A stretch of 64,000 bases of DNA from Yuukianura sp. NJ FZ-2021 (GCA_046563655.1 CM102285.1:5394001-5458000); one strand, 5' to 3'; shown: positions 148 through 28,225, numbered from the stretch's first letter. Notes: generated from the letters alone by a model not told the origin. Translations and numbers: made by a program.

Positions 148-3100
148 AAGTGGTCCATTTTTTTATCTCGATGGAGAACCGTGTTCTGGGGGGGGGGATT
201 GGCATATTTAAATTTCTTTTAACCGCAACTTTGAGGTGGTTCATTTTTATCGGAAGGGAGAACCGTGTTCTGGTGTAGACATATGTAACTTTCTTTTAAG
301 CCTAGCTTTGAAGTGGTCCATTTTTATCTCGATGGAGGACCATGTTCTGGGTTTGGCATATTTAAATTTCTTTTCAGCCTAACCTCGAGTTGGTTCATTT
401 TTATCGCGAGGTAGAACCGTGTTCTGGGATTGGCATATTTAAATTTCTTTTAACCGCAACTTTGAGGTGGTTCATTTTTATCGGAAGGGAGAACCGTGTT
501 CTGGTGTAGACATATTTAACTTTCTTTTAAGCCTAACTTTGAAGTGGTCCATTTTTATCTCGATGGAGAACCGTGTTCTGGGAATGGCATATTTAGATTT
601 CTTTTCAGCCTAACCTCGAGTTGGTTCATTTTTATCGCGAGGTAGAACCGTGTTCTGGAGTTGGCATATTTAAATTTCTTTTAATCGCAACTTTGAGGTG
701 GTTCATTTTTATCGGAAGGGGGAACCGTGTTCTGGTGTAGACATATTTAACTTTCTTTTAAGCCTTACTTTGAAGTGGTCCATTTTGATCTCGATGGAGA
801 ACCGTGTTCTGGGAATGGCATATCTAAATTTCTTTTCAGCCTAACCTCGAGTTGGTTCATTTTTATCGCGAGGTAGAACCGTGTTCTGGAGTTGGCATAT
901 TTAAATTTCTTTTAACCGCAACTTTGAGGTGGTTCATTTTTATCGGAAGGGAGAACCGTGTTCTGTTGTAGACATATTTAACTTTCTTTTAAGCCTAGCT
1001 TTGAAGTGGTCCATTTTTATCTCGATGGAGGACCATGTTCTGGGTTTGGCATATTTAAATTTCTTTTCAGCCTAACCTCGAGTTGGTTCATTTTTATCGC
1101 GAGGTAGAACCGTGTTCTGGGATTGGCATATTTAAATTTCTTTTAACCGCAACTTTGAGGTGGTTCATTTTTATCGGAAGGGAGAACCGTGTTCTGGTGT
1201 AGACATATTTAACTTTCTTTTAAGCCTAACTTTGAAGTGGTCCATTTTTATCTCGATGGAGGACCATGTTCTGGGTTTGGCATATTTAAACTTCTTTTCA
1301 GCCTAACCTCGAGTTGGTTCATTTTTATCGCGAGGTAGAACCGTGTTCTGGAGTTGGCATATTTAAATTTCTTTTAACCGCAACTTTGAGGTGGTTCATT
1401 TTTATCGGAAGGGAGAACCGTGTTCTGTTGTAGACATATTTAACTTTCTTTTAAGCCTAGCTTTGAAGTGGTCCATTTTTATCTCGATGGAGGACCATGT
1501 TCTGGGTTTGGCATATTTAAATTTCTTTTCAGCCTAACCTCGAGTTGGTTCATTTTTATCGCGAGGTAGAACCGTGTTCTGGGATTGGCATATTTAAATT
1601 TCTTTTAACCGCAACTTTGAGGTGGTTCATTTTTATCGGAAGGGAGAACCGTGTTCTGGTGTAGACATATTTAACTTTCTTTTAAGCCTAACTTTGAAGT
1701 GGTCCATTTTTATCTCGATGGAGGACCATGTTCTGGGTTTGGCATATTTAAACTTCTTTTCAGCCTAACCTCGAGTTGGTTCATTTTTATCGCGAGGTAG
1801 AACCGTGTTCTGGAGTTGGCATATTTAAATTTCTTTTAACCGCAACTTTGAGGTGGTTCATTTTTATCGGAAGGGGGAACCGTGTTCTGGTGTAGACATA
1901 TTTAACTTTCTTTTAAGCCTTACTTTGAAGTGGTCCATTTTGATCTCGATGGAGAACCGTGTTCTGGGAATGGCATATCTAAATTTCTTTTCAGCCTAAC
2001 CTCGAGTTGCTTCATTTTTATCGCGAGGTAGAACCGTGTTCTGGAGTTGGCATATTTAAATTTCTTTTAACCGCAACTTTGAGGTGGTTCATTTTTATCG
2101 GAAGGGAGAACCGTGTTCTGCTGTAGACATATTTAACTTTCTTTTAAGCCTAGCTTTGAAGTGGTCCATTTTTATCTCGATGGAGGACCATGTTCTGGGT
2201 TTGGCATATTTAAATTTCTTTTCAGCCTAACCTCGAGTTGGTTCATTTTTATCGCGAGGTAGAACCGTGTTCTGGGATTGGCATATTTAAATTTCTTTTA
2301 ACCGCAACTTTGAGGTGGTTCATTTTTATCGGAAGGGAGAACCGTGTTCTGGTGTAGACATATTTAACTTTCTTTTAAGCCTAACTTTGAAGTGGTCCAT
2401 TTTTATCTCGATGGAGAACCGTGTTCTGGGAATGGCATATTTAGATTTCTTTTCAGCCTAACCTCGAGTTGGTTCATTTTTATCGCGACGTAGAACCGTG
2501 TTCTGGAGTTGGCATATTTAAATTTCTTTTAACCGCAACTTTGAGGTGGTTCATTTTTATCGGAAGGGGGAACCGTGTTCTGGTGTAGACATATTTAACT
2601 TTCTTTTAAGCCTTACTTTGAAGTGGTCCATTTTGATCTCGATGGAGAACCGTGTTCTGGGAATGGCATATCTAAATTTCTTTTCAGCCTAACCTCGAGT
2701 TGGTTCATTTTTATCGCGAGGTAGAACCATGTTCTGGAGTTGGCATATTTAAATTTCTTTTAACCGCAACTTTGAGGTGGTTCATTTTTATCGGAAGGGA
2801 GAACCGTGTTCTGGTGTAGACATATGTAACTTTCTTTTAAGCCTAGCTTTGAAGTGGTCCATTTTTATCTCGATGGAGGACCATGTTCTGGGTTTGGCAT
2901 ATTTAAATTTCTTTTCAGCCTAACCTCGAGTTGGTTCATTTTTATCGCGAGGTAGAACCGTGTTCTGGGATTGGCATATTTAAATTTCTTTTAACCGCAA
3001 CTTTGAGGTAGTTCATTTTTATCGGAATGGAGAACCGTGTTCTGGTGTAGACATATTTAACTTTCTTTTAAGCCTAACTTTGAAGTGGTCCATTTTTATC

Positions 3101-3441
3101 TCGATGGAGGACCATGTTCTGGATTTGGCATATTTAAATTTCTTTTCAGCCTAACCTCGAGTTGGTTCATTTTTATCGCGAGGTAGAACCGTGTTCTGGA
3201 GTTGGCATATTTAAATTTCTTTTAACCGCAACTTTGAGGTGGTTCATTTTTATCGGAATGGAGAACCGTGTTCTGGTGTAGACATATTTAACTTTCTTTT
3301 AAGCCTAACTTTGAAGTGGTCCATTTTTATCTCGATGGAGGACCATGTTCTGGGTTTGGCATATTTAAATTTCTTTTCAGCCTAACCTCGAGTTGGTTCA
3401 TTTTTATCGCGAGGTAGAACCGTGTTCTGGAGTTGGCATAA
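148..3441. repeat. Tandem satellite array, 231-bp unit made of three diverged 77-bp subunits, ~14 units
   Basis: The AACCGCAACT marker recurs at 221, 452 and 683 (period 231). Each subunit shares GGT(T/C)CATTTTTATC...GAACCGTGTTCTGG...CATATTTAA.TTTCTTTT. The array is flanked by the direct repeat CCCTTCCCCACT at 136-147 and 3442-3453. Confidence 0.97.
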
Positions 3442-4694
3442 CCCTTCCCCACTCCCAGTGGTGTCCCGGGAGGTTTAAGTTTCATTCAGCGAGCTTGAAA
3501 AAATCGCCTTATCGCTTGAGCTATTTCGTCATGCGCGGTTTACAGCCGGTTTATTCTCACTAGTTTTATTTTGGTAAACAACCCTGTTTCATGAAGAGAC
3601 GATGACTTAGATGAACGAACATATTCTTAGACTAGACTAGATACTGGTGAGTTGGTTGATATCCTAATTGATGCTAGCTGAACTGTAATCTCATTATGAA
3701 GCTCGACTACATTAAAAATGGCTATGAGAAAAGCAGCCACGGTAACTCAGATATTTACGATACAGGAAAGAATTGTAAAATCTTAACTACCATTTGTAGT
3801 GTTATACTAGAACGTTAGAGAAATGAAGGAGATTCTACTTCCATTATTGAAGGTGAAATTACCGGATCTATTTTCATTTCTAATAACTTATTATATTTCA
3901 AATATCTATTAATTGTATAATACTTTGCCTCAATAATTCTCTTATTAAAACACTCGTATACTGTCCATGTTTGAACACGTTGATGGGTAGGAATGGAGTA
4001 AGAAATACGACCTCAAATTGCTAAAGTTGTGGTTTGCGTTGGTTTCGCCTCCGCAATTGGAACACATAAATGGTGAAGAACGAGTTGCTTTAAAGCTAGG
4101 CTTCTTCCAAAAAGTTTGGTCTTAAGGTGTTCCTCCAAAAAACGACTGTTGCAATCTGAGGTCGTAGTGGTATTCGGTAATTGTTTATATTGTGATATAT
4201 TTACCAATGGTCTCACCAATTCAAAAATGCTGAGTATGAATCTTGAGAAATAAGCATTTTTTACGTTAATTTGGTAAGGCTGAAAGACTTTTGTTCCTCT
4301 ATCTTCAATGAATATGAAAATAAGATGTAACGCGACGTAAGTGGCAAGTAGCGTGTAACTAAATAAAAATGATAACCTAACCTTTTACGAAACCTGATAT
4401 ATCTTTCCCAGGAACACTTGGGATCATGCGTTATACCGGAAAGTCCAGTGCATGCAGGGGTGATAGAGGCCATCAATTATTTACGAAAAAATGCTTGAAA
4501 CGTTAACCAGCCATGACTTTACTTCATGCGTCTGTAAAGTCTCTCCTGCTTCCTGCTTACTAATGCTAGGGCTCAATATTTTCGGAGGAAAGTGTATTGA
4601 AATTCGTGCTCAGCATACTTCAATTAGTTACAAGGGATAAGCACTATATCTCATTACCAACTACCAGCTCCATTTTTACCCCTAGATGCGCGTG

Positions 4695-7600
4695 TTAAAC
4701 ATGTGTAAGATTCTTGCCCCTGGGAATGGTGTTGAGATTCGAAGTATTGGGGTGACATACGGCTGACGTGAATTTTGAGCTGCTGCGACAACACAGCTTG
4801 TCCAGGAATACCTTCCAAGACTCGACTGTTTTCCCAGACCAAATCCACAGCCCAGAAGTGATTCCCACAGCCAGCGACATGAAGTACCTGATTATCAAAA
4901 ATCTATAGCTATTAGTGCTATTGGTTAAAATGCATATTGTGTAAGTCAATGGTTTGGGTGGAGAGTGTACCCCCCCCCCCCTACCCCCTTTTCTTTTGCA
5001 CTTTTGGTTTTTCTTTTTGCACTTTTGTGCAACTTTTTATATTTCGTTTTTTCCCATGTTCACTGTATGTTTAAGAGTTTAATTAGTTTTTAAAAATAAT
5101 TTTAAAAAATATTTTGCGGTTTTGTGGTTTGAGTCCCACCTGAAAAATCGTCTCTTCTTTGCACTTTTATGCAACTACTTTTTAGTTTTTTTTTTTATAG
5201 CTTGGGCTCATTTTAAACTTGGCATTTAATTTGGTTTTTAATTTTTTTTGTGTTTGAAAATACTACTTTCCCGGAAGCTATCTCTCTCGGAAACTTTTTA
5301 AATAGTAAATTCTCAAAAATATTTCTTTGTAAACATCAGGTTCCTTTCTAAATATCTTTCGAAAATATTTTGAGATGACACAAGACCTAACCTACGGTTC
5401 GTATTGCACGTTTGCGGTTTTTTAATTGCCAATTACTTCCGTGTCGCGATCGCTAATTAGAATGCACGAAAAAACTTACGACAAGTTCAAGCAATGAAAA
5501 CTTTTGACCTTGTGAATTGATTGACTCGTGTACAAAATACAAACTTATTTGCCATACAAACCTAATTTGCAAACACAAGGGCATTTGTGGGAGGTCTGCA
5601 GTCTAGCTTTTCGCCGAGTGAATAACGTTTCACTCACCGCAAAAGCATTGCGTAACCATTTCAATTTGACTAGTCAGCGTTTCCGTCTAGTTGCTTATGA
5701 TCCGTGGAGTGTTGGTACGCAAGTTTATACGACACCCAATGCTGATTTTGGTATTTTTCAAAATCACAAATTTCACCGACTAATTTGTGCCGCTAGACGT
5801 CAACCTCGGTTACTATTGGTCCGCTAGTCCTTCAAAACTACTAGTCGTTTTGAATGGGCAGGGAAATAGCTTTATCGCAAGTCAACTGCCCAAGGACGTT
5901 CAAATCCCTCGAGTTTGACGACAAAGTGCGTCAACCTGGCTTCTGATTGGCCGACGTGTCGTTCCCAGAGGGCGTGGCTAGTACAATACTGAAATTTGAT
6001 TGGTCAAAATCCCAGCCCGTGTATCAATTTCAGCCATTTGGCGTCCATCTCGCTTTTGATTGGTCGACTTGTTGTTGCCCCAGAGGGCTTTGCCAGTAAA
6101 ATACTGAAATTTGCTTGGTAAAAATCCCAACCTGTAAACCAATTTCAGCCATTTGGCGTCCATCTCGCTTCTGATTGGTCGACGAGTCGTTGCATCAGTG
6201 GGCGTGGCCAGTACATTGCTGCAATTTGATTGGTCAAAATCCCAAGCCCTTTACCAATTTTCAGCCAATGGGCGTGCAGCTCGCTTCTGATTGGTCGACA
6301 TGACGTTCAAAAATGGCCTAGTCCCACCAATGGGAGTAGCTGGTCGCAAAATGTTTTAAACTCCTCTGCCATTTTTTTCTAGAAAGTGCAATAAAATAAA
6401 CTCGTGGAATCATAAAAAAATGAGATGCAAACCACAGCCGGTCCACAAAAAGCCAACATAATGTGGTTCAGAAGTACATGCCGCGTCACCGATCCGCTTA
6501 AAAACTAGTTTTAAATAAATCCAAAGTTAGACTATTGGTTTTATTTAGCTTTAATGATGCTGGTTTTTATTTTCAAGCTCATACCATATATTACACAAGA
6601 CTATGAATTGTATAAAGTATTGTGAGTGGAATACATATGAAGGAACGCTTTGAAATTTTAAGTTGAAAAAAATTACTTGAAAAAAATGCTTTTCGTAGAT
6701 GCGAAACGCGTTAGTCCGCCTTCTCCAATTTCAAGTGTAACGTCTTCCACGGCAATGGTGATAACCATTAGCTCTTCCTTTGTCTTTTCGTCAAAGCTAA
6801 GGCCCAATGCAAATTGTCCAATTTTTCCAGGATTGAACGTGTCTGATCGCAAGTTTTGAGTGTCAAACACAAAAATCGCGTTGCCCTTTACAAATTGCTC
6901 ATACGTAATATCGTTTCCGTCGGTTCCATGTGAAATTAACTTGCACATGTTGTTGTAGGCTAGCATGTAATTTTTGTTTTCAAAGTTCATTTCCTCAAAA
7001 ACAACTCCCTTTCCTTCGAATTTGAGCTTCATGTTTTTGATTCCATGTGGTTTGAAATTAAACGGTGACTTTTCGAGTTTACCATTGACGACTTCGCTTG
7101 TCGTAATTGCAATGCAGAGGAGCTTTGGCCGAATTGCCGTAGGCATAATTTTTGGAATTTCAAATTCGGTGACCCCAACGGGTACATACGTAGAGAACTT
7201 GACGGCGTTGTCAAAAGAATACAATGCCATTTTCTTTTTGCAAATGCGGTGCGAAGTTGTGTAGTCAACTTTTCATTTAGACGATATTGGCGAACGTAAA
7301 AGTCTGCACACTCCACTTCAACCTTGTATTCAGTTGTAGAGGATGGTCCGCACAAGCAAAACTCTGGGTTGGTCCGTTGAATTTGAAAATTGAACCGTGT
7401 TCCTGGCGGGAAAAGTCGCGGCGAAGTGAAAATTCCAAGCATCGGGCGTCCAATCATCTCAAATTGATTACTTTTCTTTGCCAGCTCAAGTCGAGCTTTG
7501 AAGCTTGGGTTTGTGTCGTCAAAGTTGTCCATAACATTGCCGGGAAAATAAATTTCCCTGGACAATGTACTGCTTTTCGAACCAATCCCTTGCTGAAGTT

Positions 7601-10600
7601 GAGTAAATATCCAAGCCTCGTACGGGTATGCTCTTGGCCCCTGCGCTACGACTTGCGTGTTGTTGACAACGACTTTAAAATCTTCGATAAATGTGTGAAA
7701 GAACAGATTTTCCGGAGCAACCTTGTCTGTGTCACCGAGTGCCGAGCCATCTTTTTTTCGAATGGAAACTACAAATCTGAAAAACGAATCCGACAAATCC
7801 AGGTAGGCCATTTGCCAAAACGAAAAATGAATCGGATTTTCATTTCCTTTTGTTGCATAGTACGACTCTACTTTGAGATAATTGTCCAGCAAGCAAGAAA
7901 CTTCGGTATCTGGCATGGAAAACAAGTCCAATTTGGCATTTGTGTCCACCAGCTTCGAGTGCATTGGAACGGTAAGCTCCATTTCCGTGGTTAGTTGGCC
8001 TCGTTTTAGGTAAAGTCTGTGAGATATTGTTGGGGTATTTTAATTTGCTAAAAATCGCTGAACCTCAACAATGTAGAGCCAATTGTTGTCTAAAGTACGT
8101 CGAGAGATGAGGTCGATAAGAGGTGCCGATGCCGACTGGCGACCGTTTGGATGCAAATGTCAAACTTTTTGGCAGAAAACTGTATTAAATTTGGCTTTTT
8201 GGTACCGATTGGCGACCGTTTGAAGACAACTCTGCTCACTAAACGTACAATTTTGCACAATTTTTTGGCGGAGAGGTGTTGTCACCTCGGCTTTCGCATG
8301 CCGACTGGCCGCCAAACTGGCTAATAATGCTAATTTATAGTAGTCAAAAGGTGGGGAGACTTTAGTTTCTACTATACTTAATGACAAATGTGTAAAGGCA
8401 AGTGGTTTCACCGCAGAAGCAGGCTACCATTTGCACCATTCTTGTACGAAGTAGCATACTTAAGTCCAGTTTGCCCCCTTTTTGGTTTCCTTTTTGAAGT
8501 TTTTCTAGTTGATTTCTTTCCTGCAACCTCAGTTTGGGTGACTTTTTGATGTTTTTTGTTCTTTTTTGTTGAATCTGTATCAGATTCTGCTCCACTACAG
8601 CGTGGGGATTCGATTCTCTCCTCTTTTCTTCCGCCTTTTTTTCGTTTTCGCGTCAATTTCATAGACTTTGACTCTTTGCCGCGTGATTTTTTCGATGTTT
8701 TGCGTGCTTCTGTGTCATTTGGCGACATTTGGTGTGGGATATGCTGTTCATATGGCGACATTCTTCCATGTTGCAGCGACGTTTTTTGCAACTTGCGAGG
8801 TAACTTGGACCGTCCGTCAGAATCGTCATCCTCAACTCTCGCGTTTCTTCGATTACCCGATTCCAGAACTTGCAATTCTTCATTTGAGAGGAACCCCATT
8901 ACCTGATTTCCATCCTCGTTTTTCGTTTTCCTGCTATTCTTTGGCGTAACTTGTGCAGAATCCATTGTACCAGTGTCGCTCTCAGTCAAAAACACCCTTG
9001 AGGTTACTTTTGCTTCCTGCTTTGCCAGCACGTCCTTTCCCGTTGCTCGTCAAACTACAAATGAGTATGGTTTGGTAAAGCAGTGAAGATTAAATGTTTT
9101 CCAAACTGGCCAGTTTATAATGTTCTGGCGCACACAGCACGCTGTATATACGCCAGGGTTCAGCAACAAATGATGTCTCGAGACCACTTTTTATGATTCC
9201 ACGAGTTTATTTTAATGCACTTTCTAGAAAAAAATGGCAGAGGAGTTTAAAACATTTTGCGACCAGCCACTCCCATTGGTGGGACTAGGCCATTTTTGAA
9301 CGTCATGTCGACCAATCAGAAGCGAGCTGCACGCCCATTGGCTGAAAATTGGTAAAGGGCTTGGGATTTTGACCAATCAAATTGCAGCAATGTACTGGCC
9401 ACGCCCACTGATGCAACGACTCGTCGACCAATCAGAAGCGAGATGGACGCCAAATGGCTGAAATTGGTTTACAGGTTGGGATTTTTACCAAGCAAATTTC
9501 AGTATTTTACTGGCAAAGCCCTCTGGGGCAACAACAAGTCGACCAATCAAAAGCGAGATGGACGCCAAATGGCTGAAATTGATACACGGGCTGGGATTTT
9601 GACCAATCAAATTTCAGTATTGTACTAGCCACGCCCTCTGGGAACGACACGTCGGCCAATCAGAAGCCAGGTTGACGCACTTTGTCGTCAAACTCGAGGG
9701 ATTTGAACGTCCTTGGGCAGTTGACTTGCGATAAAGCTATTTCCCTGCCCATTCAAAACGACTAGTAGTTTTGAAGGACTAGCGGACCAATAGTAACCGA
9801 GGTTGACGTCTAGCGGCACAAATTAGTCGGTGAAATTTGTGATTTTGAAAAATACCAAAATCAGCATTGGGTGTCGTATAAACTTGCGTACCAACACTCC
9901 ACGGATCATAAGCAACTAGACGGAAACGCTGACTAGTCAAATTGCGGCATTGAAATGGTTACGCAATGCTTTTGCGGTGAGTGAAACGTTATTCACTCGG
10001 CGAAAAGCTAGACTGCAGACCTCCCACAAATGCCCTTGTGTTTGCAAATTAGGTTTGTATGGCAAATAAGTTTGTATTTTGTACACGAGTCAATCAATTC
10101 ACAAGGTCAAAAGTTTTCATTGCTTGAACTTGTCGTAAGTTTTTTTCGTGCATTCTAATTAGCGATCGCGACACGGAAGTAATTGGCAATTAAAAAACCG
10201 CAAACGTGCAATACGAACCGTAGGTTAGGTCTTGTGTCATCTCAAAATATTTTCGAAAGATATTTAGAAAGGAACCTGATGTTTACAAAGAAATATTTTT
10301 GAGAATTTACTATTTAAAAAGTTTCCGAGAGAGATAGCTTCCGGGAAAGTAGTATTTTCAAACACAAAAAAAATTAAAAACCAAATTAAATGCCAAGTTT
10401 AAAATGAGCCCAAGCTATAAAAAAAAAAACTAAAAAGTAGTTGCATAAAAGTGCAAAGAAGAGACGATTTTTCAGGTGGGACTCAAACCACAAAACCGCA
10501 AAATATTTTTTAAAATTATTTTTAAAAACTAATTAAACTCTTAAACATACAGTGAACATGGGAAAAAACGAAATATAAAAAGTTGCACAAAAGTGCAAAA

Positions 10601-13600
10601 AGAAAAACCAAAAGTGCAAAAGAAAAGGGGGTAGTGGGGGGTACACTCTCCACCCAAACCATTGACTTGTGTAAGCATTTACTTTAACATCAGAATCGAG
10701 TAGACTGGCTTCCGATTTAGGACTACTCCATTTCCACTGCAGTGGCACGTCAACGACTCAATCCATTTCCTCTTTGCGTAGATTTCGTAGATGTAGGCTG
10801 CAATAACGGCAGAAGCAGGAACAGTATACAAAATGGAAAATATTCCAATCCGAATCATGAGCTTTTCCAACTTCTCCGTTTTTGAACGACCTGCCTGTTT
10901 TGTCAGTACCTGAAAAACACGTCAACATTTTTGTTTCCGCATCTGCACAATTGTTGACAGTTGTATTTGCGATTTAAAAATACTGCTACTACTACAGTGA
11001 TGTTCAGCGGAAGACACCAATAATATCAACAGCGTGTTGATTTTTATAATTATGGGGGGAAATAACCACCAACTTCCAAAAAAAAAAAATATAAGCAGAA
11101 TACAGAAAGCACCTAACCTAACCGTTCTTCATGTCAGTTCGCCGTCGCCCAGACCTTCATTCAAGGTTTCTTGAGAATGAAACACCTAACCTTCTTTTAA
11201 AAATCAATTTTTTTTTCATCAACTAAGGAAATCAAAGTCATCCTACATTGTCTAACACAGTCAAAATTTAGCGGTTACGCTTGTAAACACTCCTTGATAT
11301 CAAAGTTACAGGGATGATGGACCCTTACATAAAAAAAAGCTTTCAAGTGTAAACCCCTTTAAATTTATTTACGCACTACCAAATGATGTTATGAACGAAA
11401 AAAAAAGTTTAGAGTGTCAAACTGAATTCTAAGCCCCAGCAAAATATTTCTGTTTTTTTTATCTTTTTTTTCAAACCTTTCAAATCGCTTTGCGATTAAA
11501 GAAATACTGTAATACATGCCCAGTACTTATTCACAAATTGTTTCCTACATTTTCAAAACTTTAATTCTTTACAATTAACTAATTCGATTAATTAGTAAAT
11601 CTTCGATACGTTTTGAAATGTCGTATCCCAAATACAGATCTGTATTACACAATAATCATCTCCTGGTTCTTCAGTTTTCAAAATTAGGGACTGTCCAATT
11701 ATCGACCTCGATTAAACTCAAAACTTTACATCATGGAAAGGACTCTATCATTTTTTTTCGAGTTTTTCCGATAACTTATACCATTTTTTAAAAAATTGAT
11801 AAGATTCTTTCTTGCAATTGCTACAATACGAAAGGGTTTATTCCTGCACAAATATTGCGTAGAAAAGAAAGCGTGTTTGCTAATTTTAGCTAACATGTTC
11901 AGCAACCCTCTTTCAGTTTGTTTGCCTGCATTCGAATGCATGCCACGCCTCGCGAATACTCGGTTACCAGAATATTTTAAATTATAATATATTGCAAATT
12001 AGCGAAACGACATTGTCTTTGTTGGTATCGATTTCCCCCCATAATTTGCAAATTGAAAAACAAATACAGTGGCATATGTTAATCTTGGGACTTAATTTTG
12101 GGTTATATTTTGTAGTGAATTCACAACCGTGATGTTAACATCACGGTAGTGTAGTGACAGACTTGGACTTTTTACAAGGACTGGATCGATGATGACAAGT
12201 ATCATCTTTCATCGTTTGTAATAAGTCAAAGGTGCTACGACAATTTCTGAACCTTTAACTTGCGGTGTACCCTTGTCGTTGTCATTCAATATTAATTAAA
12301 TCTTACATGGCGAATTCGAACTAGGGCTATGAATCCGGCCAGAAGAAATGATGTGCCGAGAATTAGAAGAATGCCCAACGGAATAATGATGTAAAGGACT
12401 AATCGTACTGGGTCCTGTAACAAACGAGTAAAACGCAGGAAACACATTAGATGACGCTTCCAATGTGGTGTAGTGTTAACTTTAATCAAAATCTTGCTGC
12501 ACCTGATTTCCGATAAAACAAATGCCTCCAACAGGGTCACCATCAACGGCGCTGTCAAAAATGGCAACAAGCGTCGAGAGAGCCGGCAATACCCATGCTA
12601 CAATGTGAAAAATATGCGAATGCGATGCAATCGCTTCCGATCCCCATTTGCAACCTGCGGCCAAGTACCACGTCAGGGAAAGGATGACCCACCTATTCAA
12701 CATCAAGTTAAACAAAAAATTCATTTTTACACAGCTTTTAGAATCATTCCAACCTAATAATAACTAATATAAGTTGTATTACAGACTACAGACAAAGACT
12801 GCAGACGCTAAGACAAACGTCTACAAACAAATAACTATAAAAGTTCAATTTCATAGACAGTACGTTTGTTTTTCTTTCGATTTTGTAAATCTGCGGAAAC
12901 TGCAGTTTCCGCTCTTAAGACCTCATGAGTAGACATGCCAAAAATATTTACTAAAAACCCACAAAATATTTAAATAATAAATATTTTTCCTCAAACCTCA
13001 AAATATTTACTTAACTACCATTAAGGGCATGGGAAAATCAATAAATATTTAGTAATAAAAAAGCCCAAAATATTGATTTTGTTAACATTACAGGCATGGG
13101 AACTAAATATTGTTTGCATGTCTATCATGAGATTTGCTTCTTCATTTCTCTGATACCATAAGTAAATAACCAGATTTGTCAAAAATATGTGCTAAAAACC
13201 CTAGAAATATGGACAAAAAATATGTTTTTTTTTTTAAAAAAATCGACCAAATATTTACTTATTTAACATAAAGGGCATGGGCAAATAAATAAATATTTAG
13301 CAACAAAAACACCGGAAATATTTTTTTTTGTTAACATTGCGGGCATGGAGACTAAATATGCTTGACATCCCTGGCAATAACTTAACTTATTAATTAAGCG
13401 TAGCATACAACTTGGTATTACTTACCAAATCGACGAAGCCATCCCAAAATAGTAATTGACCAGAAATACCAATGTACATCCCCAAGAGACCCCGCCAGTA
13501 TTTGCATTTCCGCCCCCTACGTCAATAGTGTAGCGAATGATAGGCCCTTTGCACGCAATTTCATCGTGGCCTTTGTACAGCCTTAATAGATATCCGGTTG

Positions 13601-15653
13601 AAACAAGCATGTAACACGCAGACAAGTAGACGATTGGCCTCTCAGGGTACTTGAACCTGATAAAATTGATAAAAACGTCAGCTCTCAATTCGGATTAGGC
13701 ATTTTTTAGAATAAGGGTAGGAGGGTCTCACCGAGCTGGGTCGATAACAAAAGTTAGCAAGGTCCAAAAAGTAACAAATGCACACACGCTTGACCAAATA
13801 AGGAGCCAGTAAGTAGTAAATGTGATTTCATCCGCTGATTTGTAAATATTACAAGGTAGTGCGCAATCTAGAAGGCCGTTGACTTCGATACGCTGGCGTG
13901 TATAGTTGAATGCCTCCATGCCAGTAAGTCGCACTAGAGGAGAGCGGCAGTCTTTACAGGAACATGTATTCGACGTATTCAGTGGAGAACCTACAGCCGC
14001 ATTGCCGAGGTTGTTTAAAGATATTGTAGATGACTCTTTGTTGTTGGTGAACGCCACTTTGTTTCCTTTTGGAACAATCCTCACGGTTGGAATAGTTTTA
14101 GGTTCCTTTGGAGGCATCTCTCCCATTTTTTCATCCATACATAATGACTTCTTGGTGCCATAATCTGGAAACCGTTCACACTTCATTTTTTCGGGCCATT
14201 GAAATCCATACTGTATCCTGCAATGCCAAACATATTAATACAGTAATGTACCTTTTGCAACAGAAAAATATGTGGAACACCCAATGGGGGGCCCATACGT
14301 ATACTTCGTGTACTCCATATCTGTAAGTTCGCGGGACCCTATTCACAATTTAATTCTCCTAACTGCGACACTAATACCTGTCGCTTATTAAGATAATTGT
14401 AGTTTTAATTTTTAAACTAGCGTCATTGCGTCATTTAAATTCAAACAAGCCTCACAAATATCACTTCATTTATTAAATTTTTATCAACTCTACTTCTTTT
14501 CTTTGGAGACTTGAAATATAAGAGAGAGTGATTTGAAATAAACTTACATAACTGGTTCACAGCCGTATTTTGCCCTCTCACAGACAGATTTACATACAGG
14601 AACTGTCCCAGCGAAATCCTCCATACATAGTGGAACATACAGGGAGCAAATGAAAAATCGTAAATCGCTGGAACACTTGATTTCCACAAGTGGCCAATAT
14701 TGGTGAACTTCCATGCCTGCTTCTTCCTGTATACAATTACATATTTGAATTTAATGTAATAAGTAATCATAATGAATTGACAACTGTCTTTAAATTTATT
14801 CTAAAAAGTTAAGGGCCGCTAATTTCCCGGTTTTATATAACGACCTCTAGGTTATAGGTTCGAGGGGGAATAAGATGCGGGACTGTAAATCTCTTAACTC
14901 AACAACACTACCGCGGCGCGCATGGCTTCATTTTATTTCTTTAGCATGACGCTTCCTGTGCAATGCGTACCTTGGAGGGCGCTACGGTACATTACGTTAA
15001 TGAACGTACTTTTTTGCTAACATCGAAGATCTTACTATCACCGACCACAAATACTACAACTTAGGACAAGAATAAACAGCTATACCACACAAAAGTGTAC
15101 ATCGTACGATTATACAGTATTAAGTAAAACGTTGGTTATAAATTTATTGCATAGTTTTTTCTTTAGAAATTTTTCGAAGTCGGTTTTCAAATTTAAAAAA
15201 ATTTCAGTTGCTTTCTTTCACGTTAATATTACTAGAAATTATCAATTTTTCAAAGCTAATGGAGAAAGTGCTTTATATTTAAATTCTAAGTTTTTCATAA
15301 GGGAAGCGAAAAAAAAAACAAAGAAAAGCGTCTTCTAAATAGAGACAAACTATTGTCTTAGCTTAAGCCCTTAAAGGTTATATGCGATTGTCCTATACGA
15401 AAAACACTTGTCTCGTAAACTTAAGTTGCGATTGAAAACACCAAAGAGAAACGTAACTGACCTGAGTGTCATGGTTAAATTGATTGGGCAACTCCGTTAG
15501 ATTATATCCGATAGCTTTACACATTGGAATCGTAATCTCTTGACATTTTGAATTGTTTGAAATCTGCTTCGTCGTTGAGCTTCCTCCGCCAGCGCTATTA
15601 CTACTGCGGATCTCCAGTATTGCCAGAATCAGCATAGGAAATAGAAATGCCAT
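4695..15653 (-). CDS. fz2: Frizzled family Wnt receptor (Fz2/FZD5-8 type), 8 coding exons: 15653-15462, 14726-14548, 14217-13732, 13656-13426, 12692-12503, 12414-12307, 10909-10683, 4887-4695; 1806 nt, 601 aa
   Basis: Signal peptide followed by the CRD ([47 protein letters not shown]...[15 protein letters not shown]). TM region includes [38 protein letters not shown] and [22 protein letters not shown]7 reads [20 protein letters not shown], followed by KTxxxW (KTVESW) and a C-terminal PDZ ligand LTHV. All introns are GT-AG and the phases join into one frame. The subfamily call rests on motif resemblance only. Confidence 0.95.
4944..6418 (+). repeat. Left terminal inverted repeat (~1475 bp) of the Polinton-like element
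   Basis: Reverse complement of 9188-10667. I see only a few differences: the poly-C tract, an 8-bp indel near 5667/9945, and single substitutions near 6348 and 6391. Confidence 0.95.
5941..6300. repeat. ~115-bp tandem repeat (about 3.2 copies) inside the TIR, rich in ATTGG/CCAAT and GGGCGTGG motifs; mirrored at ~9305-9667
   Basis: TGATTGG(T/C)CGAC recurs at ~5945, 6058, 6173 and 6289 (periods 113-116). Confidence 0.85.
6673..7982 (-). CDS. Polinton/adintovirus-type double jelly-roll major capsid protein, split by a 1-nt frameshift at ~7235 (reconstructed ~436 aa)
   Basis: ORF 7029-7982 contains [40 protein letters not shown] and [14 protein letters not shown], which match the Polinton PY/MCP pattern (LDLF..P.T...YIDLS...PVNN.LHSLF..V.V.LN...YPYRAY.E.LL). 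ORF 6673-7230 supplies the C-terminal half ([42 protein letters not shown]). One added A in GCAAAAAGAAAATG fuses the two. Confidence 0.85.
8408..8965 (-). CDS. Basic K/R/S-rich low-complexity protein (~185 aa from the first ATG; ORF open from 9031), possible virion core/DNA-condensing protein
   Basis: Uninterrupted ORF inside the element, co-oriented with and upstream of the MCP. Contains [12 protein letters not shown] and [14 protein letters not shown] tracts and TPK/SPY/SPN/SPR motifs. The function is inferred. Confidence 0.55.
   Translation of the reverse strand: MDSAQVTPKNSRKTKNEDGNQVMGFLSNEELQVLESGNRRNARVEDDDSDGRSKLPRKLQKTSLQHGRMSPYEQHIPHQMSPNDTEARKTSKKSRGKESKSMKLTRKRKKGGRKEERIESPRCSGAESDTDSTKKNKKHQKVTQTEVAGKKSTRKTSKRKPKRGQTGLKYATSYKNGANGSLLLR
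9188..10667 (-). repeat. Right terminal inverted repeat (~1480 bp) of the Polinton-like element
   Basis: Mirror of 4944-6418. It explains the identical 61-aa ORFs at 5978-6163 (-) and 9443-9628 (+). Confidence 0.95.
12929..13372. repeat. Two related short AT-rich MITE-like units in a Frizzled intron
   Basis: AGACATGC...GCATGTCT inverted ends at ~12931/13123. The CATTA.GGGCATGG and AAATATTT motifs repeat four or more times. Confidence 0.45.
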
Positions 15654-15846
15654 GACCCAGTCCTTCCAGAATCAGATTTGAAAGATTCGATGTGATTGCC
15701 AATTTACATACTGCACGACTTCCCGGTCAATATGTACATAACCGCTAATAAAGTGGTGCTGAAACAATCAAAATATAACGATTAAAGAATTAAAGTCCTA
15801 CGACGAACTATGCATGTACAGTAACGCATTTTGGAACAAGATAATT

Positions 15847-21183: not shown

Positions 21184-22871
21184 TTATTTGCAACAATTGG
21201 CTGATCGCGGGGTTGCATCTCGGTCGTCAAGTCTCCGTCCTTGAAGTTGACCAGTTCCAGCTGATTCTCCCTTCGGTAATTTTTTGGCTGAAAGGAATAA
21301 CAGTGACTCTGTTTTGTTAAGCCCACTTATTCTTTGGAATTCTGGCTAATAGCTTACTAATTATTCAATGTCTACTAGTTCGTAAGATTTATAACGAGGA
21401 TTTACCGATTGCAAGGAAAATATCAGTGACGTTCATGGCTGTTTTGGCCGATGTTTCCATAAAAAGGAGTCCATTTTCTTCGGCATATGTGTATGCCTCG
21501 TCGTGGTCCACCATACGCTTTGCGGAGAGATCTGACTTGTTACCTGCGAGAGCAATAACGATGGATGGTGATGCCTGACGTTGTAGCTCTTTCACCCATG
21601 TTTTGGCACGGGCAAACGTCTCCTGTGCAAAGAAATTATCACATTAGAGAAATGCCATAGCACAATCTTACAGAATTGGTAATTTGTCATGAATCAACTT
21701 GCCTGATTGGTTACATCATACACGACAACCGCTGCCTGAGCTCCTCTGTAATACATAGGCGCCAGGGAATGATACCTTTCCTGTCCAGCCGTATCCCAGA
21801 TTTCAAATTTTACAGTTGTGTCGTCTAACATTACCGTCTGCGTTAGGAAGGCAGCTGAAATGAAAAATAAGATAACGTTAATTAAGTTGCTGTTATTATA
21901 CTTTGATAATCGGTTAAATTATACCACTCGTACTTGGCAACTTTTAATGGTTAGTTACACTTACAAAGTGCGACAGACGCGCGTGCATTGAGCAACTGCA
22001 ACGCCATATCAATCCTTAATTAAGTAGCATACCGTTACAAATTGGAAATACGTTATACGATAATATTCACATACAAATGTAGAAGATGAGAAGACATAAG
22101 GAAATCAGGTTAGGGCATTTTTACCAAAATCCTAAAACATATATCGAAAAAACAACTTGTGACATGTCTACTATTGAATCGAACAAAAACCAGAATCACA
22201 TCATTGTTCGTTTTACTTTCAAGTTGTTATCAATTTCTTCTCACATTTAAAAAAAAAAACTATATTATAACTTTGACTTACTGAAATAAAAAAAAACAAT
22301 GATTTGAACATTACATTTTAAGTGTCATTTAGGAAACATTTTCATTTTCATTGATACTATCCTAGGTATTAATTTCAATGGTAAGGACCAATCCAGGAAA
22401 TGAGCCGATTCTGTGATAGTTATCGGACGACACGACGACAACCAGAAAGATTGACAAGTTCGACAGATGAAGTAGCTTTCGCTACTAAGTAGAGAGTTAA
22501 GGATAATTGACAACCACGACCCCCACTTACTTTTACATGAACTATTCGACCGACAGATACTAATAGTGCCAGTACAGTAAGATCCAGAACAACCTGTTTC
22601 TGGATTTCACGGCGTTAGATAGTAAACTGCTAATTAGATGTTGAATTCTCTGTCTTACCCCTATTGTGCTCTCCTGGTATTCATGGAATTGTCCCTTGAC
22701 GAACCTCAGAACTAAGCTGGATTTTCCAACGGCGGATTCACCGAGAAGTACCAACTTGAACTGGCAGATTTTGTTCTGGGTCGAGCCTCCGCCATTTGCT
22801 GGCCTGTCTCGTTGCTGACCTGTTGCAGTTGACGCAGCAGCAGCTCCACCACGGCTCACGTTCGAGGACAT
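21184..22871 (-). CDS. Rab5: Rab5 small GTPase; exons 22871-22659, 21854-21703, 21622-21406, 21287-21184 (~228 aa; needs one extra G at the exon 1 donor)
   Basis: Motifs [45 protein letters not shown]...[36 protein letters not shown] and FMETSAK, plus a C-terminal CCK prenylation motif. Confidence 0.95.
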
Positions 22872-24235
22872 GCTCTTCTTCTCGGTATACTATCCTGCAA
22901 ATCAAAGTAAACCCAACGTCATTATTATTATCGCAGCGTTTCTTCACTTGTCGATCGATACAGGAGGGTCTTAATTGGAAGCAAGTTATCGGTATCTACT
23001 CAGATGTCGGTATCAGAGGAAGGACTGGCGGCAGAGTTCGGGTCATTAGGGAGAGGTTTTAACTTTTAAGGGTTTGAATTCGTGGAATTAGGGAGAATTT
23101 AGGAAGTGTTTGGTTCCGAAACCATGGCAAGTCGGGACCGCGAGCCCAATTGTCAATGTGAGTTAAAAAATTTTGTTTAAGACATGATATGACTACAACA
23201 AAACCGTCTGTATAAGTTGTTCTACCTGAACGGGTAGTACTTTTACTTTTTGTCCTATTATGACTAAGACGATGACCCAATGACCAAAACCAGATTATTT
23301 CTTATTTACCTTTACTATTAATCTAATTGTGCCATCTAATTAGGAAGTGCCGTACAACTAATTAAAGGTGTGTCCCAGTCGCGGGACAGCGGGTCAATTT
23401 CAATTCTGTTATACATTTTCACACCACCGGGATAGTTATGATGTTGATGTACCTCAAAATCAAATCCTTAAATCCACCACACCCATTGTCCATTGTGTCC
23501 TCATATTGAATTAGTCCTTACGCATTGGAAAGGTACTAGATTATGACATAACTGTTATACCGTCATTTGAGAACATGAAACTACGGTTAGATACTCGTAT
23601 TCTTCGGTGTAAGATTCGTTAATATGCCTAACCAGTTACAAAAAGTGGATTTAGTATGTTTCTCTAATCAAGCACTAGCCCAATTATTCGCTAATTTAGC
23701 TAACAATTGTGAATTTTACCTTACTAGTAAAGTAATACTAGTTCTCACTTCGTAATCAAGTGGTGTCGCTACGTTTCTTGTTGATTTCGGAACAGTCGTC
23801 GTTGCAGAAGTTACTTGCAGTGGTTTCGATCCAACACCCGATTAAGTTTTTTATGTTTTAACCTGATTCCCTTTATTTTTAATTTTGAGTCAGATTGACA
23901 GCCTCTAAAGGAATCCTCCTACTTCTACTTCATGTTCGTACTTTAGAACTTTTATTACACATTCTGGTTGCAGTCAACTTAAGGCCGCACTTATGTACTC
24001 ATGTGTAGGAGGTGCGCCCGTTGATTCCAATTCGAACTCATCGAGGTGTACTCTGATGGCTTCAACGTAAACTTATATTCTTGGGAACGTGCTATCTTTA
24101 CTAAAATTGTTCTAAAAAAACGTATTAGTACACAACTCGATTAGAACAGGACAAAGTAGAGAATTCGAAAAGAAAAAGATCGGGATTGGGAACATAGTGT
24201 TGCCCACACCTCCAGGCGGTCCGCCGACGAAAGCG

Positions 24236-25399: not shown

Positions 25400-28225
25400 A
25401 TGTCAGGCACAATTTCCCCTGCGTCCGAAGAACGGATTTCTTCGATTCAAAGGAAGCTGGAGATAATGACAGAGGCAGGGGCGGTACGTACTATTAATTT
25501 AGGAGTGACTTATACTTACTAAGATACTATGACTATGAAAACTTGAGGAAGAGTGAATTTAGACAGTTTCTCCTTAAAAAGTACGGCATCACCTTTGAAA
25601 AATAAGTATAAGTACTAAGTAGAAAAAATAGTCACTGGAGATTGGGCGCAGGAAAGAACAAAAGGACGCGGATGAAACAGTTTTCCAATTTAACTTTCCT
25701 GACGACAACCTCAGAAAGTACTACTAAGTGCCCATATAAATTTGTTCAGTTGAATTACATGACGTGATTTTCTGATATCATGCATGACCCTGTCGTTATT
25801 GCGTCATTTTCGGTCATTCTCTTATGTCAAAAGTTATATTTGGCTAGTTCCTCACCAAACACGGTCGCATGCGCAAAGGAGATGCTGTACTCATTACCTA
25901 TTCCTTTCTAACTCTCAAATTGGCGTTGACTGATTGAGTAGTGAATGTGCTAACCTTTTACGGAACCATTACCTACCAAATAACTCAATTAATAGGCTTA
26001 GGTACATATTGGTTTGGTGTATTTATTTTTAGGATAAAAGTCGTGCTCTTGACTACTTGAAGACATTGAGAGACACTCCTATAAACCTCTCAATCCTTAC
26101 AAACACTCGAATTGGCATGACTGTTAACAAGCTGAGGAAGGCTAGCAACGACAAAGATGTGATCGTACTCGCAAAAACACTGATTCGGAAGTGGAAGAAA
26201 TGTCTCCCAGGTCTGTCATAAACGTTGTTATTATTATTATAGTCGCTATCTTATTATCACCGTTCGCTGATGTTATTGATTTAAGAATGGTTTAAATGCC
26301 TTTTGTAGACACTGATGGAAGCGAATCGCCTAGTACAACGGCCAGTAAATCGATAGATCGTCGTACGGACTCCGACGGCGACGGAGATAGTTCTAACCAA
26401 GGATGCACGAGCGTCAAACGCCAAAAAACTGAAGACCAGCCGCCTCCAGCACCAAATGTAACGTCACGCCCGCAGTTCCAGACTTCGTTTCCACCTCCTT
26501 CTAACACTACCGACTCAGTCAGGCTCAAGTGCAGGGAAATGCTGTGCGCCGCTATTAAAGGAGACGAGAGTGAGCTTTTTTAATATTTCGTATATCAACA
26601 ACCTGGGTTAATTTAGTTTGAGGAGGGACGGTAACATTCGACATCACATGATTTTCATTCACTTCTGGTGTTTGTGAATTCTGAAGTTCGTTTGTTCCCC
26701 TTTCCCATGGCTAAGCTGTTGGAAATTCCACCAGATATTTTGTACACAGACCCTCTGTATGATAGAATTGAGTGCCAATGAAAAAAAGGGATAGTTTTGT
26801 AGTGTCGTTTCTCTCTATGGTATTACTTATTCAGTTGTACTTAAAGTCTAATTGGAAATCAAATCATGTGCTAGCAAATTTTGGCAGTACCACCGCTTTA
26901 ATTCCCAATTCAGTAAATACTTTTTGTCATGGTTTCCATTAAACTTTGACATTGCCTCCCCGGACATAGGACAAGCGCTACCTCTACCTACAGTTTTACC
27001 AACTACACAAATTACGAGACTTAAAATATGATTTGTGTTATTTATGCAGATTTCCCAGATGGCTCCAACGATCCTGAGATGTTGGCTGAACGTCTGGAAG
27101 ACGAAATTTTTAAGGAGTTTAAAAACACAGATTTCAAGTATAAAAACAGAATTCGGAGTCGGGTGGCTAATTTGAAGGACACTAAAAATCCCAATCTGCG
27201 CATAAATTTTCTGCAAGGTTCTATTAGCGCAGCAAGGCTGGCTAAGATGACTGCGGAGGTAAAGTTATCTACCATTCTTGTCTTGGAAATCCTATTTCAG
27301 TTTCTGGTAATAAATACCCAACGTTGTGTTCTACTATGGTTGTTAGGAGATGGCGAGCGACGACATGAAGGCAATGCGGGAGAGTTTCATAAAAGAAGGC
27401 ATCAACGACTCTCAGCTGGCTATGAATCAAGGAACAAAGACTGACCTCCTTAAATGCTCGAAGTGCAACAAGAGAAATTGCACTTACAACCAGGTACTAT
27501 ATATTTTACAGATGAATGAACAAAGTGAAAGAAAAAAGTTGAAGGCGAAAGTCGCGCGAAACCTATCAAGCAGGCTACAACGCCTGATAGACGTTAACGC
27601 TGGTTTCGGTTAGCAAGTAGAATAAAGTAAATCGAACTGTCAAATGGCAAAACCTGAGTGGGGGCGAAGTTTTGTTGCTGCTGTTCGCGTAGTAGTAGTC
27701 TATTCCCTAGGCCACTTTTCGGACTTGTAGTGATTATTCGATGTTGATTTTTGTTGTTAGTCAAGTGTTTCGAATTCATTTTTGTAAGACTGATTTTAAG
27801 CTAACGTCGGGATGAAATGAGTCAGCATTTGAGAAAATATCCCAAGGCTTATGTCCATCGAAAAATTTCCTTTCGGAGACAATTTCTTATAAGATTGGTT
27901 AGTAGGCGAGCACTCCTAATAGTGTCACTTGAAATCATAATCAGTGCTGTGTTAAAAACTGATTAATATAAAGTTGGTAGCTCGTGATTTTGGTAGTAAC
28001 TCAACCTTCATTACTATAAGTGGTGAGATTACGGTCCTAATAATTCCCGCTCGGCTCAGAGTTAGTAGGAAATACATTCGGTGTTTCATCTTTCTGGTGT
28101 TCTTATTTACTCCGGATTTAATTTCTTGTTTTGATTCCTTATAGATCCAAACTAGGAGTGCAGATGAGCCGATGACTACCTTCGTCTTATGCAACGAGTG
28201 TGGGAACCGTTGGAAGTTTTGTTAA
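25400..28225 (+). CDS. TfIIS: Transcription elongation factor S-II; exons 25400-25483, 26033-26210, 26309-26569, 27050-27258, 27347-27493, 28145-28225; 960 nt, 319 aa
   Basis: Domain I ([15 protein letters not shown]...[10 protein letters not shown]), central domain ([34 protein letters not shown]) and Zn ribbon ([39 protein letters not shown]). All introns are GT-AG and in frame. Confidence 0.96.

Follow-up and report, generated by a model that had tools for sequence, protein, structure and literature searches.

Mavericks, also known as Polintons (polintoviruses, adintoviruses), are central to current schemes for the origin of eukaryotic double-stranded DNA (dsDNA) viruses, and their life cycle as viruses is hardly known. 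They usually measure 15-20 kb, and their tips reportedly follow an AG...CT rule put forward by Kapitonov and Jurka in 2006. Long terminal inverted repeats (TIRs) and a 6-bp target-site duplication are named as typical of Polintons in passages of a published account in which a complete lizard (Anolis) element measures 17,487 bp (PMC3014272). Here, we analyze an element of only 5.7 kb that has such ends, a major capsid gene, and no recognizable replication or integration gene. It occupies positions 4944-10667 of a 64,000-nt stretch of the Yuukianura sp. NJ FZ-2021 assembly (GCA_046563655.1 CM102285.1:5394001-5458000), hereafter the window. The reading that we favor, with moderate confidence, is that it represents a non-autonomous Maverick/Polinton lineage that keeps its capsid genes under selection and depends, in the manner of a satellite, on a helper.

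Several smaller or dependent elements offer themselves for comparison. Satellite viruses and capsid-forming phage satellites (cf-PICIs) encode their own capsid and borrow replication or other virion functions from a helper. Virophages, at 17-30 kb, have replication genes of their own along with a full morphogenetic module, and one of them, mavirus, has TIRs and an integrase. Classical non-autonomous DNA transposons normally retain no intact gene. Transpovirons, the ~7-kb TIR-bounded linear plasmid-like elements of mimiviruses, are described in passages of one source as members of a Polinton-centered class derived by gene loss: a Tlr1-like superfamily 1 (SF1) helicase fused to an inactivated polymerase was retained, the morphogenetic module disappeared, and no capsid gene is left (PMC5499653). 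Parts of the paper by Krupovic et al. 2014 deal with Polintons that lost the capsid gene along with the protease and the ATPase (PMC4028283).

Results

The element has Polinton-type ends

The element starts with AG (4944-4945), ends with CT (10666-10667), and is flanked by a perfect 6-bp duplication, TGTGTA. The direct repeat around it is actually 9 nt long (TTGTGTAAG, at 4937-4945 and 10667-10675) because the 6-bp duplication abuts matching bases. Just one of the four possible 6-nt solutions, AG...CT with TGTGTA, yields symmetric ends. Each strand of the 64-kb window contains the 28-nt tip exactly once, where shuffled sequences lead one to expect no occurrence. The two arms, of 1475 and 1480 nt, align with three substitutions and three indels (4 nt in a poly-C run, 1 nt, and 8 nt), which corresponds to ~99.8% identity at aligned bases. 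Tips, duplication, and near-identical TIRs had all been described in a first-pass annotation of the window, made from the sequence alone, and that description is confirmed. By its ends and target duplication, that is, long TIRs with 5'-AG...CT-3' tips and a 6-bp duplication, the element is a Polinton/Maverick-type insertion. Assignment to another transposon superfamily was considered and rejected on the grounds that no frame resembles a transposase and that one gene encodes a capsid-fold protein.

Each arm contains 3.3 copies of a 115-bp tandem repeat, whose units are rich in CCAAT/ATTGG-type motifs, two per unit, oriented inward toward the genes. The repeats may be enhancer or promoter elements, or else replication-protein/origin-binding sites.

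The interior encodes a double jelly-roll capsid protein

Between the arms lies an interior of 2769 nt, with room for two genes only, and two co-oriented minus-strand genes are indeed what it holds: a capsid gene and a very basic open reading frame (ORF) of 185 aa. This agrees with the earlier description of a ~2.8-kb interior. The capsid gene, its frame break aside, aligns end to end and collinearly with natural 437-aa proteins to which it is 51-55% identical, and its C-terminal piece is 50% identical to the protein encoded by a metagenome contig, L001, that is described below. All 11 near-invariant residues of the family are kept (6/6 in the N-terminal half and 5/5 in the C-terminal half). 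The first-pass annotation had called this a full-length major capsid gene, which holds for its extent and for its predicted fold, while in the assembly the gene is read in two frames. In the region upstream of the capsid gene, a CCGAnTGGCGACCGTTTG-like motif is repeated at 8132-8156 and 8205-8229.

The capsid family is a large one. A profile search returned 6671 representative proteins at E<=1e-3, of which 3927 at E<=1e-10, and the best 150 of the 6671 matches are mostly 400-460 aa long. Members that bear a name are hypothetical proteins of a snail. Atlas neighbors of the capsid protein fall into eukaryotic clusters in which Arthropoda and Nematoda are the commonest phyla, and some of these clusters carry PF21738 (DJR-like_dom), in 15-24% of their members. 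The same Pfam family matches 3 of 102 family members, with a best E value of 2.2e-5, and gives no match on the window's capsid pieces or on the homolog P0001, nor does any other Pfam family. Neither viral contigs (searched with a three-protein alignment, P0009, or P0013 as query) nor prokaryote genome contigs yielded relatives, and sequence searches of solved structures gave chance-level matches only. One homolog, P0003, is 541 aa long and carries an insert of ~100 aa at residues ~232-340, between the jelly rolls, with a duplicated acidic/basic segment; in capsid proteins, the region between the two jelly rolls often bears surface towers.

Since the window's capsid gene lies in two frames, the fold was modeled not on the two pieces joined together but on P0001, a natural homolog that is collinear with them and 51% identical, using a 102-sequence alignment. 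The model is of high quality, with a predicted local distance difference test score (pLDDT) of 92.8 and a predicted template modeling score (pTM) of 0.90, and shows two consecutive eight-stranded jelly rolls in one chain. Foldseek matched it to the capsid proteins of an iridovirus, Paramecium bursaria chlorella virus 1 (PBCV-1), mavirus, and Sputnik, with E values of 1e-16 to 1e-13. With VIA-align, in which 314-406 residues were aligned across the capsid matches, Z scores span 16-28: 27.7 for PBCV-1, 27.2 for faustovirus, 24.8 for p72 of African swine fever virus (ASFV), 23.5 for Sputnik, ~22 for vaccinia D13, 21.2 for mavirus, ~17 for adenovirus hexons, and ~16 for PRD1 P3. In the viral library searched, the top match is an uncharacterized bracovirus protein (E 5.6e-22, 21% identity), followed by adomavirus LO7, MELD-virus, and adintovirus proteins. 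Structure prediction, which the first-pass annotation had proposed as a check on its double jelly-roll assignment, therefore bears that assignment out in the homolog. This model places the large ORF in the family of double jelly-roll major capsid proteins.

The element carries a basic ORF and no enzyme genes

The second gene is a basic ORF. Its open frame spans 213 codons from stop to stop, a length that was reached just once when the region was dinucleotide-shuffled 1000 times. It has no homolog, no Pfam family, and no Atlas neighbor, and a single-sequence AlphaFold2 (AF2) prediction (pLDDT 58, pTM 0.16) yielded no fold and is, at most, compatible with disorder. By composition and position, its product is a candidate DNA-condensing, core-like protein.

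As had been claimed, genes for replication and integration are missing. None of the 50 stop-to-stop frames of at least 45 aa across 4944-10667 matches a polymerase, integrase (rve), ATPase, or protease family of Pfam at E<=0.01; the lone match among them, T-box_assoc (E 0.006), is subthreshold and due to chance, and Pfam finds nothing in the window's three ORFs. No second jelly-roll ORF was found in the element's frames. The major capsid gene is thus the sole member present of a morphogenetic module that comprises major capsid, penton, packaging ATPase, and maturation protease.

The two-gene layout recurs in a distant relative

In metagenome contig L001 (3944 nt), whose capsid protein is 50-51% identical to that of the window, the organization is the same. 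Inverted repeats at 3-454 and 3365-3795 surround a 2.9-kb interior, in which a basic ORF of 161 codons (isoelectric point [pI] 10.3) is followed by an intact capsid ORF of 439 codons. The length of this basic ORF was matched in 5 of 1000 shuffles, no homolog of it was found, and the gap between the capsid stop codon and the arm is 226 nt, as compared with 254 nt in the window. In a fragment, L002, the capsid gene is likewise immediately preceded by a basic ORF (pI 10.9); the longest open frame there is no longer than in shuffles (241/1000). The basic ORFs of L001 and L002 share a marginal C-terminal motif (E 0.009 for that single comparison). Because L001, ~50% diverged in its capsid, has the same layout between inverted repeats, the arrangement is probably a lineage trait and not a one-off deletion. 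It is a separate curiosity of L001 that both ORFs are intact despite arms that are 83% identical, which is odd if arms start out identical and then decay neutrally.

These findings bear on the most ordinary explanation of the locus, namely that a full-length Maverick, in which the cassette of basic ORF and capsid gene adjoined the right arm, recently lost the stretch between its left arm and the 3' end of the capsid gene, the latter being a mere passenger. Internal deletion is the established, common origin of non-autonomous DNA transposons. Applied here, it would require two independent deletions ending alike, given the layout of L001 and its stop-to-arm spacing. It is therefore probable that the element is more than a one-off deletion derivative.

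Sequencing runs point to purifying selection on the capsid gene

Contigs from four public sequencing runs were compared with the window; no RNA run was among the five listed. Runs X1, X3, and X4 come from one sample (organism A), and X2 carries a second, closely related organism label (organism B). By the warning of the tool used, contig depths are not copy numbers, and for a joint to count fully its shorter side should reach 31 letters.

Three X1 contigs (2, 3, and 4) cover 6737-7744, which is ~1 kb of the 1.3-kb capsid coding sequence. They differ from the window by 14 substitutions (8, 2, and 4), every one of them synonymous, where 21.5% would be expected under neutrality; by our arithmetic, the probability of this happening by chance is ~4e-10. 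Divergence at synonymous sites amounts to ~5-6%, as compared with 1-1.5% in flank contigs (4 in 276 and 2 in 293). Since the capsid gene is more diverged than the flank, the X1 copies most likely represent a paralogous lineage that diverged under purifying selection, rather than an allele of this insertion. This pattern argues that the capsid gene has been retained by purifying selection. It argues against neutral decay of the capsid, one of the outcomes that the first-pass annotation had named as telling against its own reading.

A further contig, of 2228 nt from X3 (7060-9286), bears synonymous differences as well and extends from the capsid gene across the basic ORF to a point 99 nt inside the right arm. 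It is relevant to the concern that a longer element was collapsed between its two arms during assembly. The assembly does show weak spots, given the long inverted arms and the places where homopolymer lengths differ (the poly-C run and the tract of the frame break). Independent short-read contigs reproduce both the interior into the right arm (X3) and the right junction, which an X4 contig spans at 10619-10988; the skip at the empty site described below equals the element plus one duplication; and L001 shows the same layout. An assembly artifact is consequently extremely improbable. Stretches without contig cover in some of the runs, such as 6268-6488 and 5605-5825 in X3, are uninformative either way.

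The same runs suggest that the site is polymorphic. Between 4936 and 10667, a joint leaves out 5730 nt, exactly the element and one copy of the duplication, as expected of an empty site. Its depth is 16.5 in X1 (31-35 in flank contigs) and 105.6 in X3 (200-226 in flank contigs). Together with the filled right junction in X4, these short contigs make an empty/filled polymorphism likely but not firm. Near-identical arms, with the suggested empty site beside the filled one, indicate that the insertion is young, in line with the recent integration proposed in the first-pass annotation. Domestication of the capsid gene by the host was rejected in view of the intact transposon ends and the short contigs pointing to an empty allele.

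A subtler role would be that of an interfering or defensive element, whose capsid protein or ends compete with a full-length Maverick and which is kept because it damps its helper. Defective interfering genomes and capsid-derived restriction factors do compete with full-length relatives. A capsid gene under selection in an element that cannot build a whole virion would fit such a role, and identical cis ends would be expected to compete for the polymerase and integrase of the helper. Nevertheless, the insertion is not fixed, to judge from the empty site in the contigs, transposon ends and duplication are still present, and there is no sign of features of a host gene or of expression, all of which makes this role highly improbable.

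There are also signs of more than one copy of the element, possibly many in organism B. The interior is deeper than the flank in X2 (141.7 vs. 3.94), X3 (615 vs. 200), and X1 (49.6 vs. 31), with X4 at 94.8 vs. 121. Variant tips are seen in X2 and X4, and in one X2 contig such a tip is followed by flanking sequence other than that of the window, which points to another insertion site. In X1, mirror-image loose ends at 5330 and 10354 indicate a further element in the sample, identical in kind only over the outer ~390 nt of both arms and different in its continuation. It is a candidate relative, sister family, or helper.

That other element would also fit a reading of the locus as one segment of a two-part (multipartite) Maverick, with the capsid module on its own TIR-bounded molecule and, on a partner with the same ends, polymerase, integrase, and every other morphogenesis gene except that for the major capsid. 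An essential segment would be expected to show purifying selection and a layout kept over ~50% divergence, as the capsid gene and its surroundings do, and Polintons without a capsid gene have been reported, as parts of the Krupovic et al. 2014 paper relate (PMC4028283). According to the same passages, the Polintons in question also lost protease and ATPase, which looks like loss of the virus state and not like partition. No partner sequence was seen in our material, and in organism A the insertion is polymorphic and low-copy. We consider a multipartite genome of this kind quite improbable.

The element lies in an intron of a Frizzled-family gene

The insertion site lies 9-15 nt downstream of the GT donor of an intron, and element and host gene are co-oriented. 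The intron measures 65 nt without the element and one copy of the duplication, and 5795 nt with both. Its splice sites read AA|GTAAAT at 10682-10681 (donor) and AATCAG| at 4889-4888 (acceptor). The flanking exons, which correspond to positions 227-291 (10682-10858) and 290-321 (4698-4892) of Pfam Frizzled on the minus strand, are consecutive parts of the membrane region of this family. The AATAAA signals of the element could truncate the host's Frizzled transcripts. No Rfam family was found within 4500-11100. The coordinates of all features are collected in Table 1.

Table 1. Features of the element and of its insertion site (window coordinates; a dot denotes no strand).
Feature	Position	Strand	Basis or remark
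Intron of the Frizzled-family host gene	4888..10682	-	Splice sites read from the sequence; exons by Pfam
Target-site duplication TGTGTA, left copy	4938..4943	.	Identical to 10668-10673
Left terminal inverted repeat, 5'-AG start	4944..6418	+	1475 nt
115-bp tandem repeat in left arm, 3.3 copies	5928..6307	.	Period 115, 81% matches
AATAAA, candidate poly(A) signal	6540..6545	-	128 nt downstream of the capsid stop
Capsid gene, C-terminal part (predicted second jelly roll), stop codon included	6673..7230	-	185-aa ORF; aligns to P0001 residues ~253-437
A/T tract rich in homopolymers, frame shift of the capsid gene in the assembly	7231..7241	-	Contigs of 4 runs differ by one base
Capsid gene, N-terminal part (predicted first jelly roll), ATG at 7982-7980	7242..7982	-	51-53% identity to P0001/P0002
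Intergenic region, candidate capsid-gene promoter	7983..8407	-	Repeated motif; TATAAAT at 8338-8332
Basic ORF, 185 aa	8408..8965	-	ORF call and composition; 25% K+R, pI 10.4, predicted mostly disordered
TATATAC, candidate TATA box	9144..9150	-	~180 nt upstream of the ATG of the basic ORF
Right terminal inverted repeat, CT-3' end on + strand	9188..10667	-	1480 nt
115-bp tandem repeat in right arm, mirror copy	9299..9678	.	Tandem-repeat analysis
Target-site duplication TGTGTA, right copy	10668..10673	.	Read from the sequence

The Frizzled-family gene, which has short introns, extends over 4698-15671 on the minus strand and is followed by two ordinary host genes, one with Ras/Rab-like GTPase exons at 22563-22889 (-) and one with TFIIS-like exons at 26296-27444 (+; TFIIS_M, E 3e-20). 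A 215-bp satellite of very uniform composition (153 copies, 96% matches) fills the last 33 kb of the window, from 31057 to 64000. A second satellite, at 199-3440, has a 77-bp unit within a 231-bp higher-order repeat (14 copies, 96% matches). The Frizzled, Ras/Rab-like, and TFIIS-like exons, taken together with the satellite arrays, identify the host as an animal genome with short introns.

Discussion

How the element might be mobilized

How could an element with two virion-type genes and no enzymes spread? In the reading that we favor, the long inverted ends would carry the cis signals, namely AG...CT tips for a retroviral-type integrase that makes the 6-bp duplication and, presumably, an origin for protein-primed replication. 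The interior would supply, besides a double jelly-roll major capsid protein, a very basic protein of small size that is probably DNA condensing. Since the element has no enzyme genes, replication and integration would have to come from a co-resident autonomous Maverick with compatible ends, whose polymerase and integrase would act on it in trans. If the element is packaged, it would be the helper's penton, ATPase, and protease that close and fill the capsid. With a layout that is probably a lineage trait and a capsid gene that appears to be under purifying selection, the element would then behave like a capsid-encoding satellite of a larger virus-like transposon.

A bolder version of this reading can be put forward only tentatively. 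It holds that animal Mavericks have satellites that encode a capsid, a persistent lineage of ~4-6 kb TIR-bounded elements (or, alternatively, that these make up the capsid segment of a bipartite Maverick). Since before the ~50% divergence seen here, they would have had no genes other than a major capsid gene and a basic core-like gene, and they would borrow polymerase, integrase, vertex, packaging, and maturation functions from a helper.

A number of points weigh against dependence on a helper and selection for the capsid, and some of them at the same time favor the recent deletion of a longer parent. The capsid frame is broken once in this assembly, within an A/T homopolymer tract. In the contigs of all four runs, the length of this tract deviates by one base from that in the window. 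The frame is thus continuous in other copies, which argues against a one-off deletion, and the break is either private to this copy or an assembly error. An X2 joint from 6911 to 8842, with 6 nt of letters common to both sides, skips 1930 nt and thereby most of both genes. This further-deleted form looks abundant (depth 104.8, as compared with 141.7 for the intact form), and, if real, it means that multiplication of copies does not require an intact capsid gene in cis. The differences, all synonymous, could predate a recent deletion, having been laid down in an autonomous parent lineage. In addition, an X4 contig tracks the window to 6494, 76 nt inside the inner edge of the left arm, and then diverges, which could be the continuation of that parent. 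On the other side, the 2228-nt X3 contig, with its synonymous differences, has the same right-hand structure into the right arm, and the double coincidence that L001 would demand has been mentioned above. On balance, a plain deletion derivative seems unlikely to us, though it is the alternative to be taken most seriously.

The remaining adverse points concern the helper, the runs, and the relative. Without penton, ATPase, and protease, the element cannot by itself build a closed, filled capsid. No helper was seen, and the window has no polymerase or integrase gene. In the literature searched, which did not extend to Repbase entries and supplements that might list such elements, there is no account of a capsid-only non-autonomous Polinton and hence no independent precedent. 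The shorter sides of the empty-site joints, 21 and 26 letters, stay below the 31-letter bar, which makes them weak evidence, and in X4 the interior is no deeper than the flank, depths in any case not being equal to copy numbers. As for L001, its arms are just 83% identical and the contig ends inside them, so that termini and duplication fall outside. Finally, the basic ORF of the window has no significant sequence similarity to those of L001 and L002.

Should the capsid really have been kept under selection over deep divergence, this would suggest that Maverick capsids are actually made and matter for spread in animal genomes, and that Mavericks have parasites or partners of their own. The element would be a eukaryotic dsDNA counterpart of the capsid-forming phage satellites, or the capsid segment of a bipartite Maverick. 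Being compact (5.7 kb), polymorphic, and intronic, it would also offer a trackable marker for Maverick mobilization in natural populations. If it is only a deletion derivative, it is still a clean case of a non-autonomous Maverick that is young and polymorphic and lies 9-15 nt from a Frizzled splice donor.

Comparison with known systems

The element resembles Polintons/Mavericks in its long TIRs, its 6-bp duplication, and a double jelly-roll capsid whose family is widespread among animal genomes and whose fold resembles that of adintovirus, MELD-virus, and bracovirus-borne proteins. It differs from autonomous Polintons in its size of 5.7 kb and in having no polymerase, integrase, penton, ATPase, or protease gene, and it is therefore a Polinton derivative and not a Polinton proper. 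With the virophages mavirus and Sputnik it has the double jelly-roll capsid fold in common (Z 21-23.5), but the sequence identity of their capsid proteins to the P0001 model is only 12-14%.

Like classical non-autonomous DNA transposons and miniature inverted-repeat transposable elements (MITEs), the element has kept its cis ends, has lost the enzymes, and needs to be mobilized in trans. In contrast to them, it has a full-length structural gene, its divergence from related copies is synonymous only, and its layout recurs in a ~50%-diverged relative. If our reading is right, it is like satellite viruses and cf-PICIs in encoding its own capsid protein in the absence of replication genes. Unlike these, it is integrated in an animal genome with transposon-type ends and has no vertex protein.

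The transpovirons, finally, are likewise small, TIR-bounded, and dependent on a larger virus, but the two show mirror-image losses. These known small derivatives kept replication genes and lost the capsid, whereas the element described here, in which no helicase or polymerase frame is found, is the reverse case: it lost the replication genes and kept the gene for the capsid.

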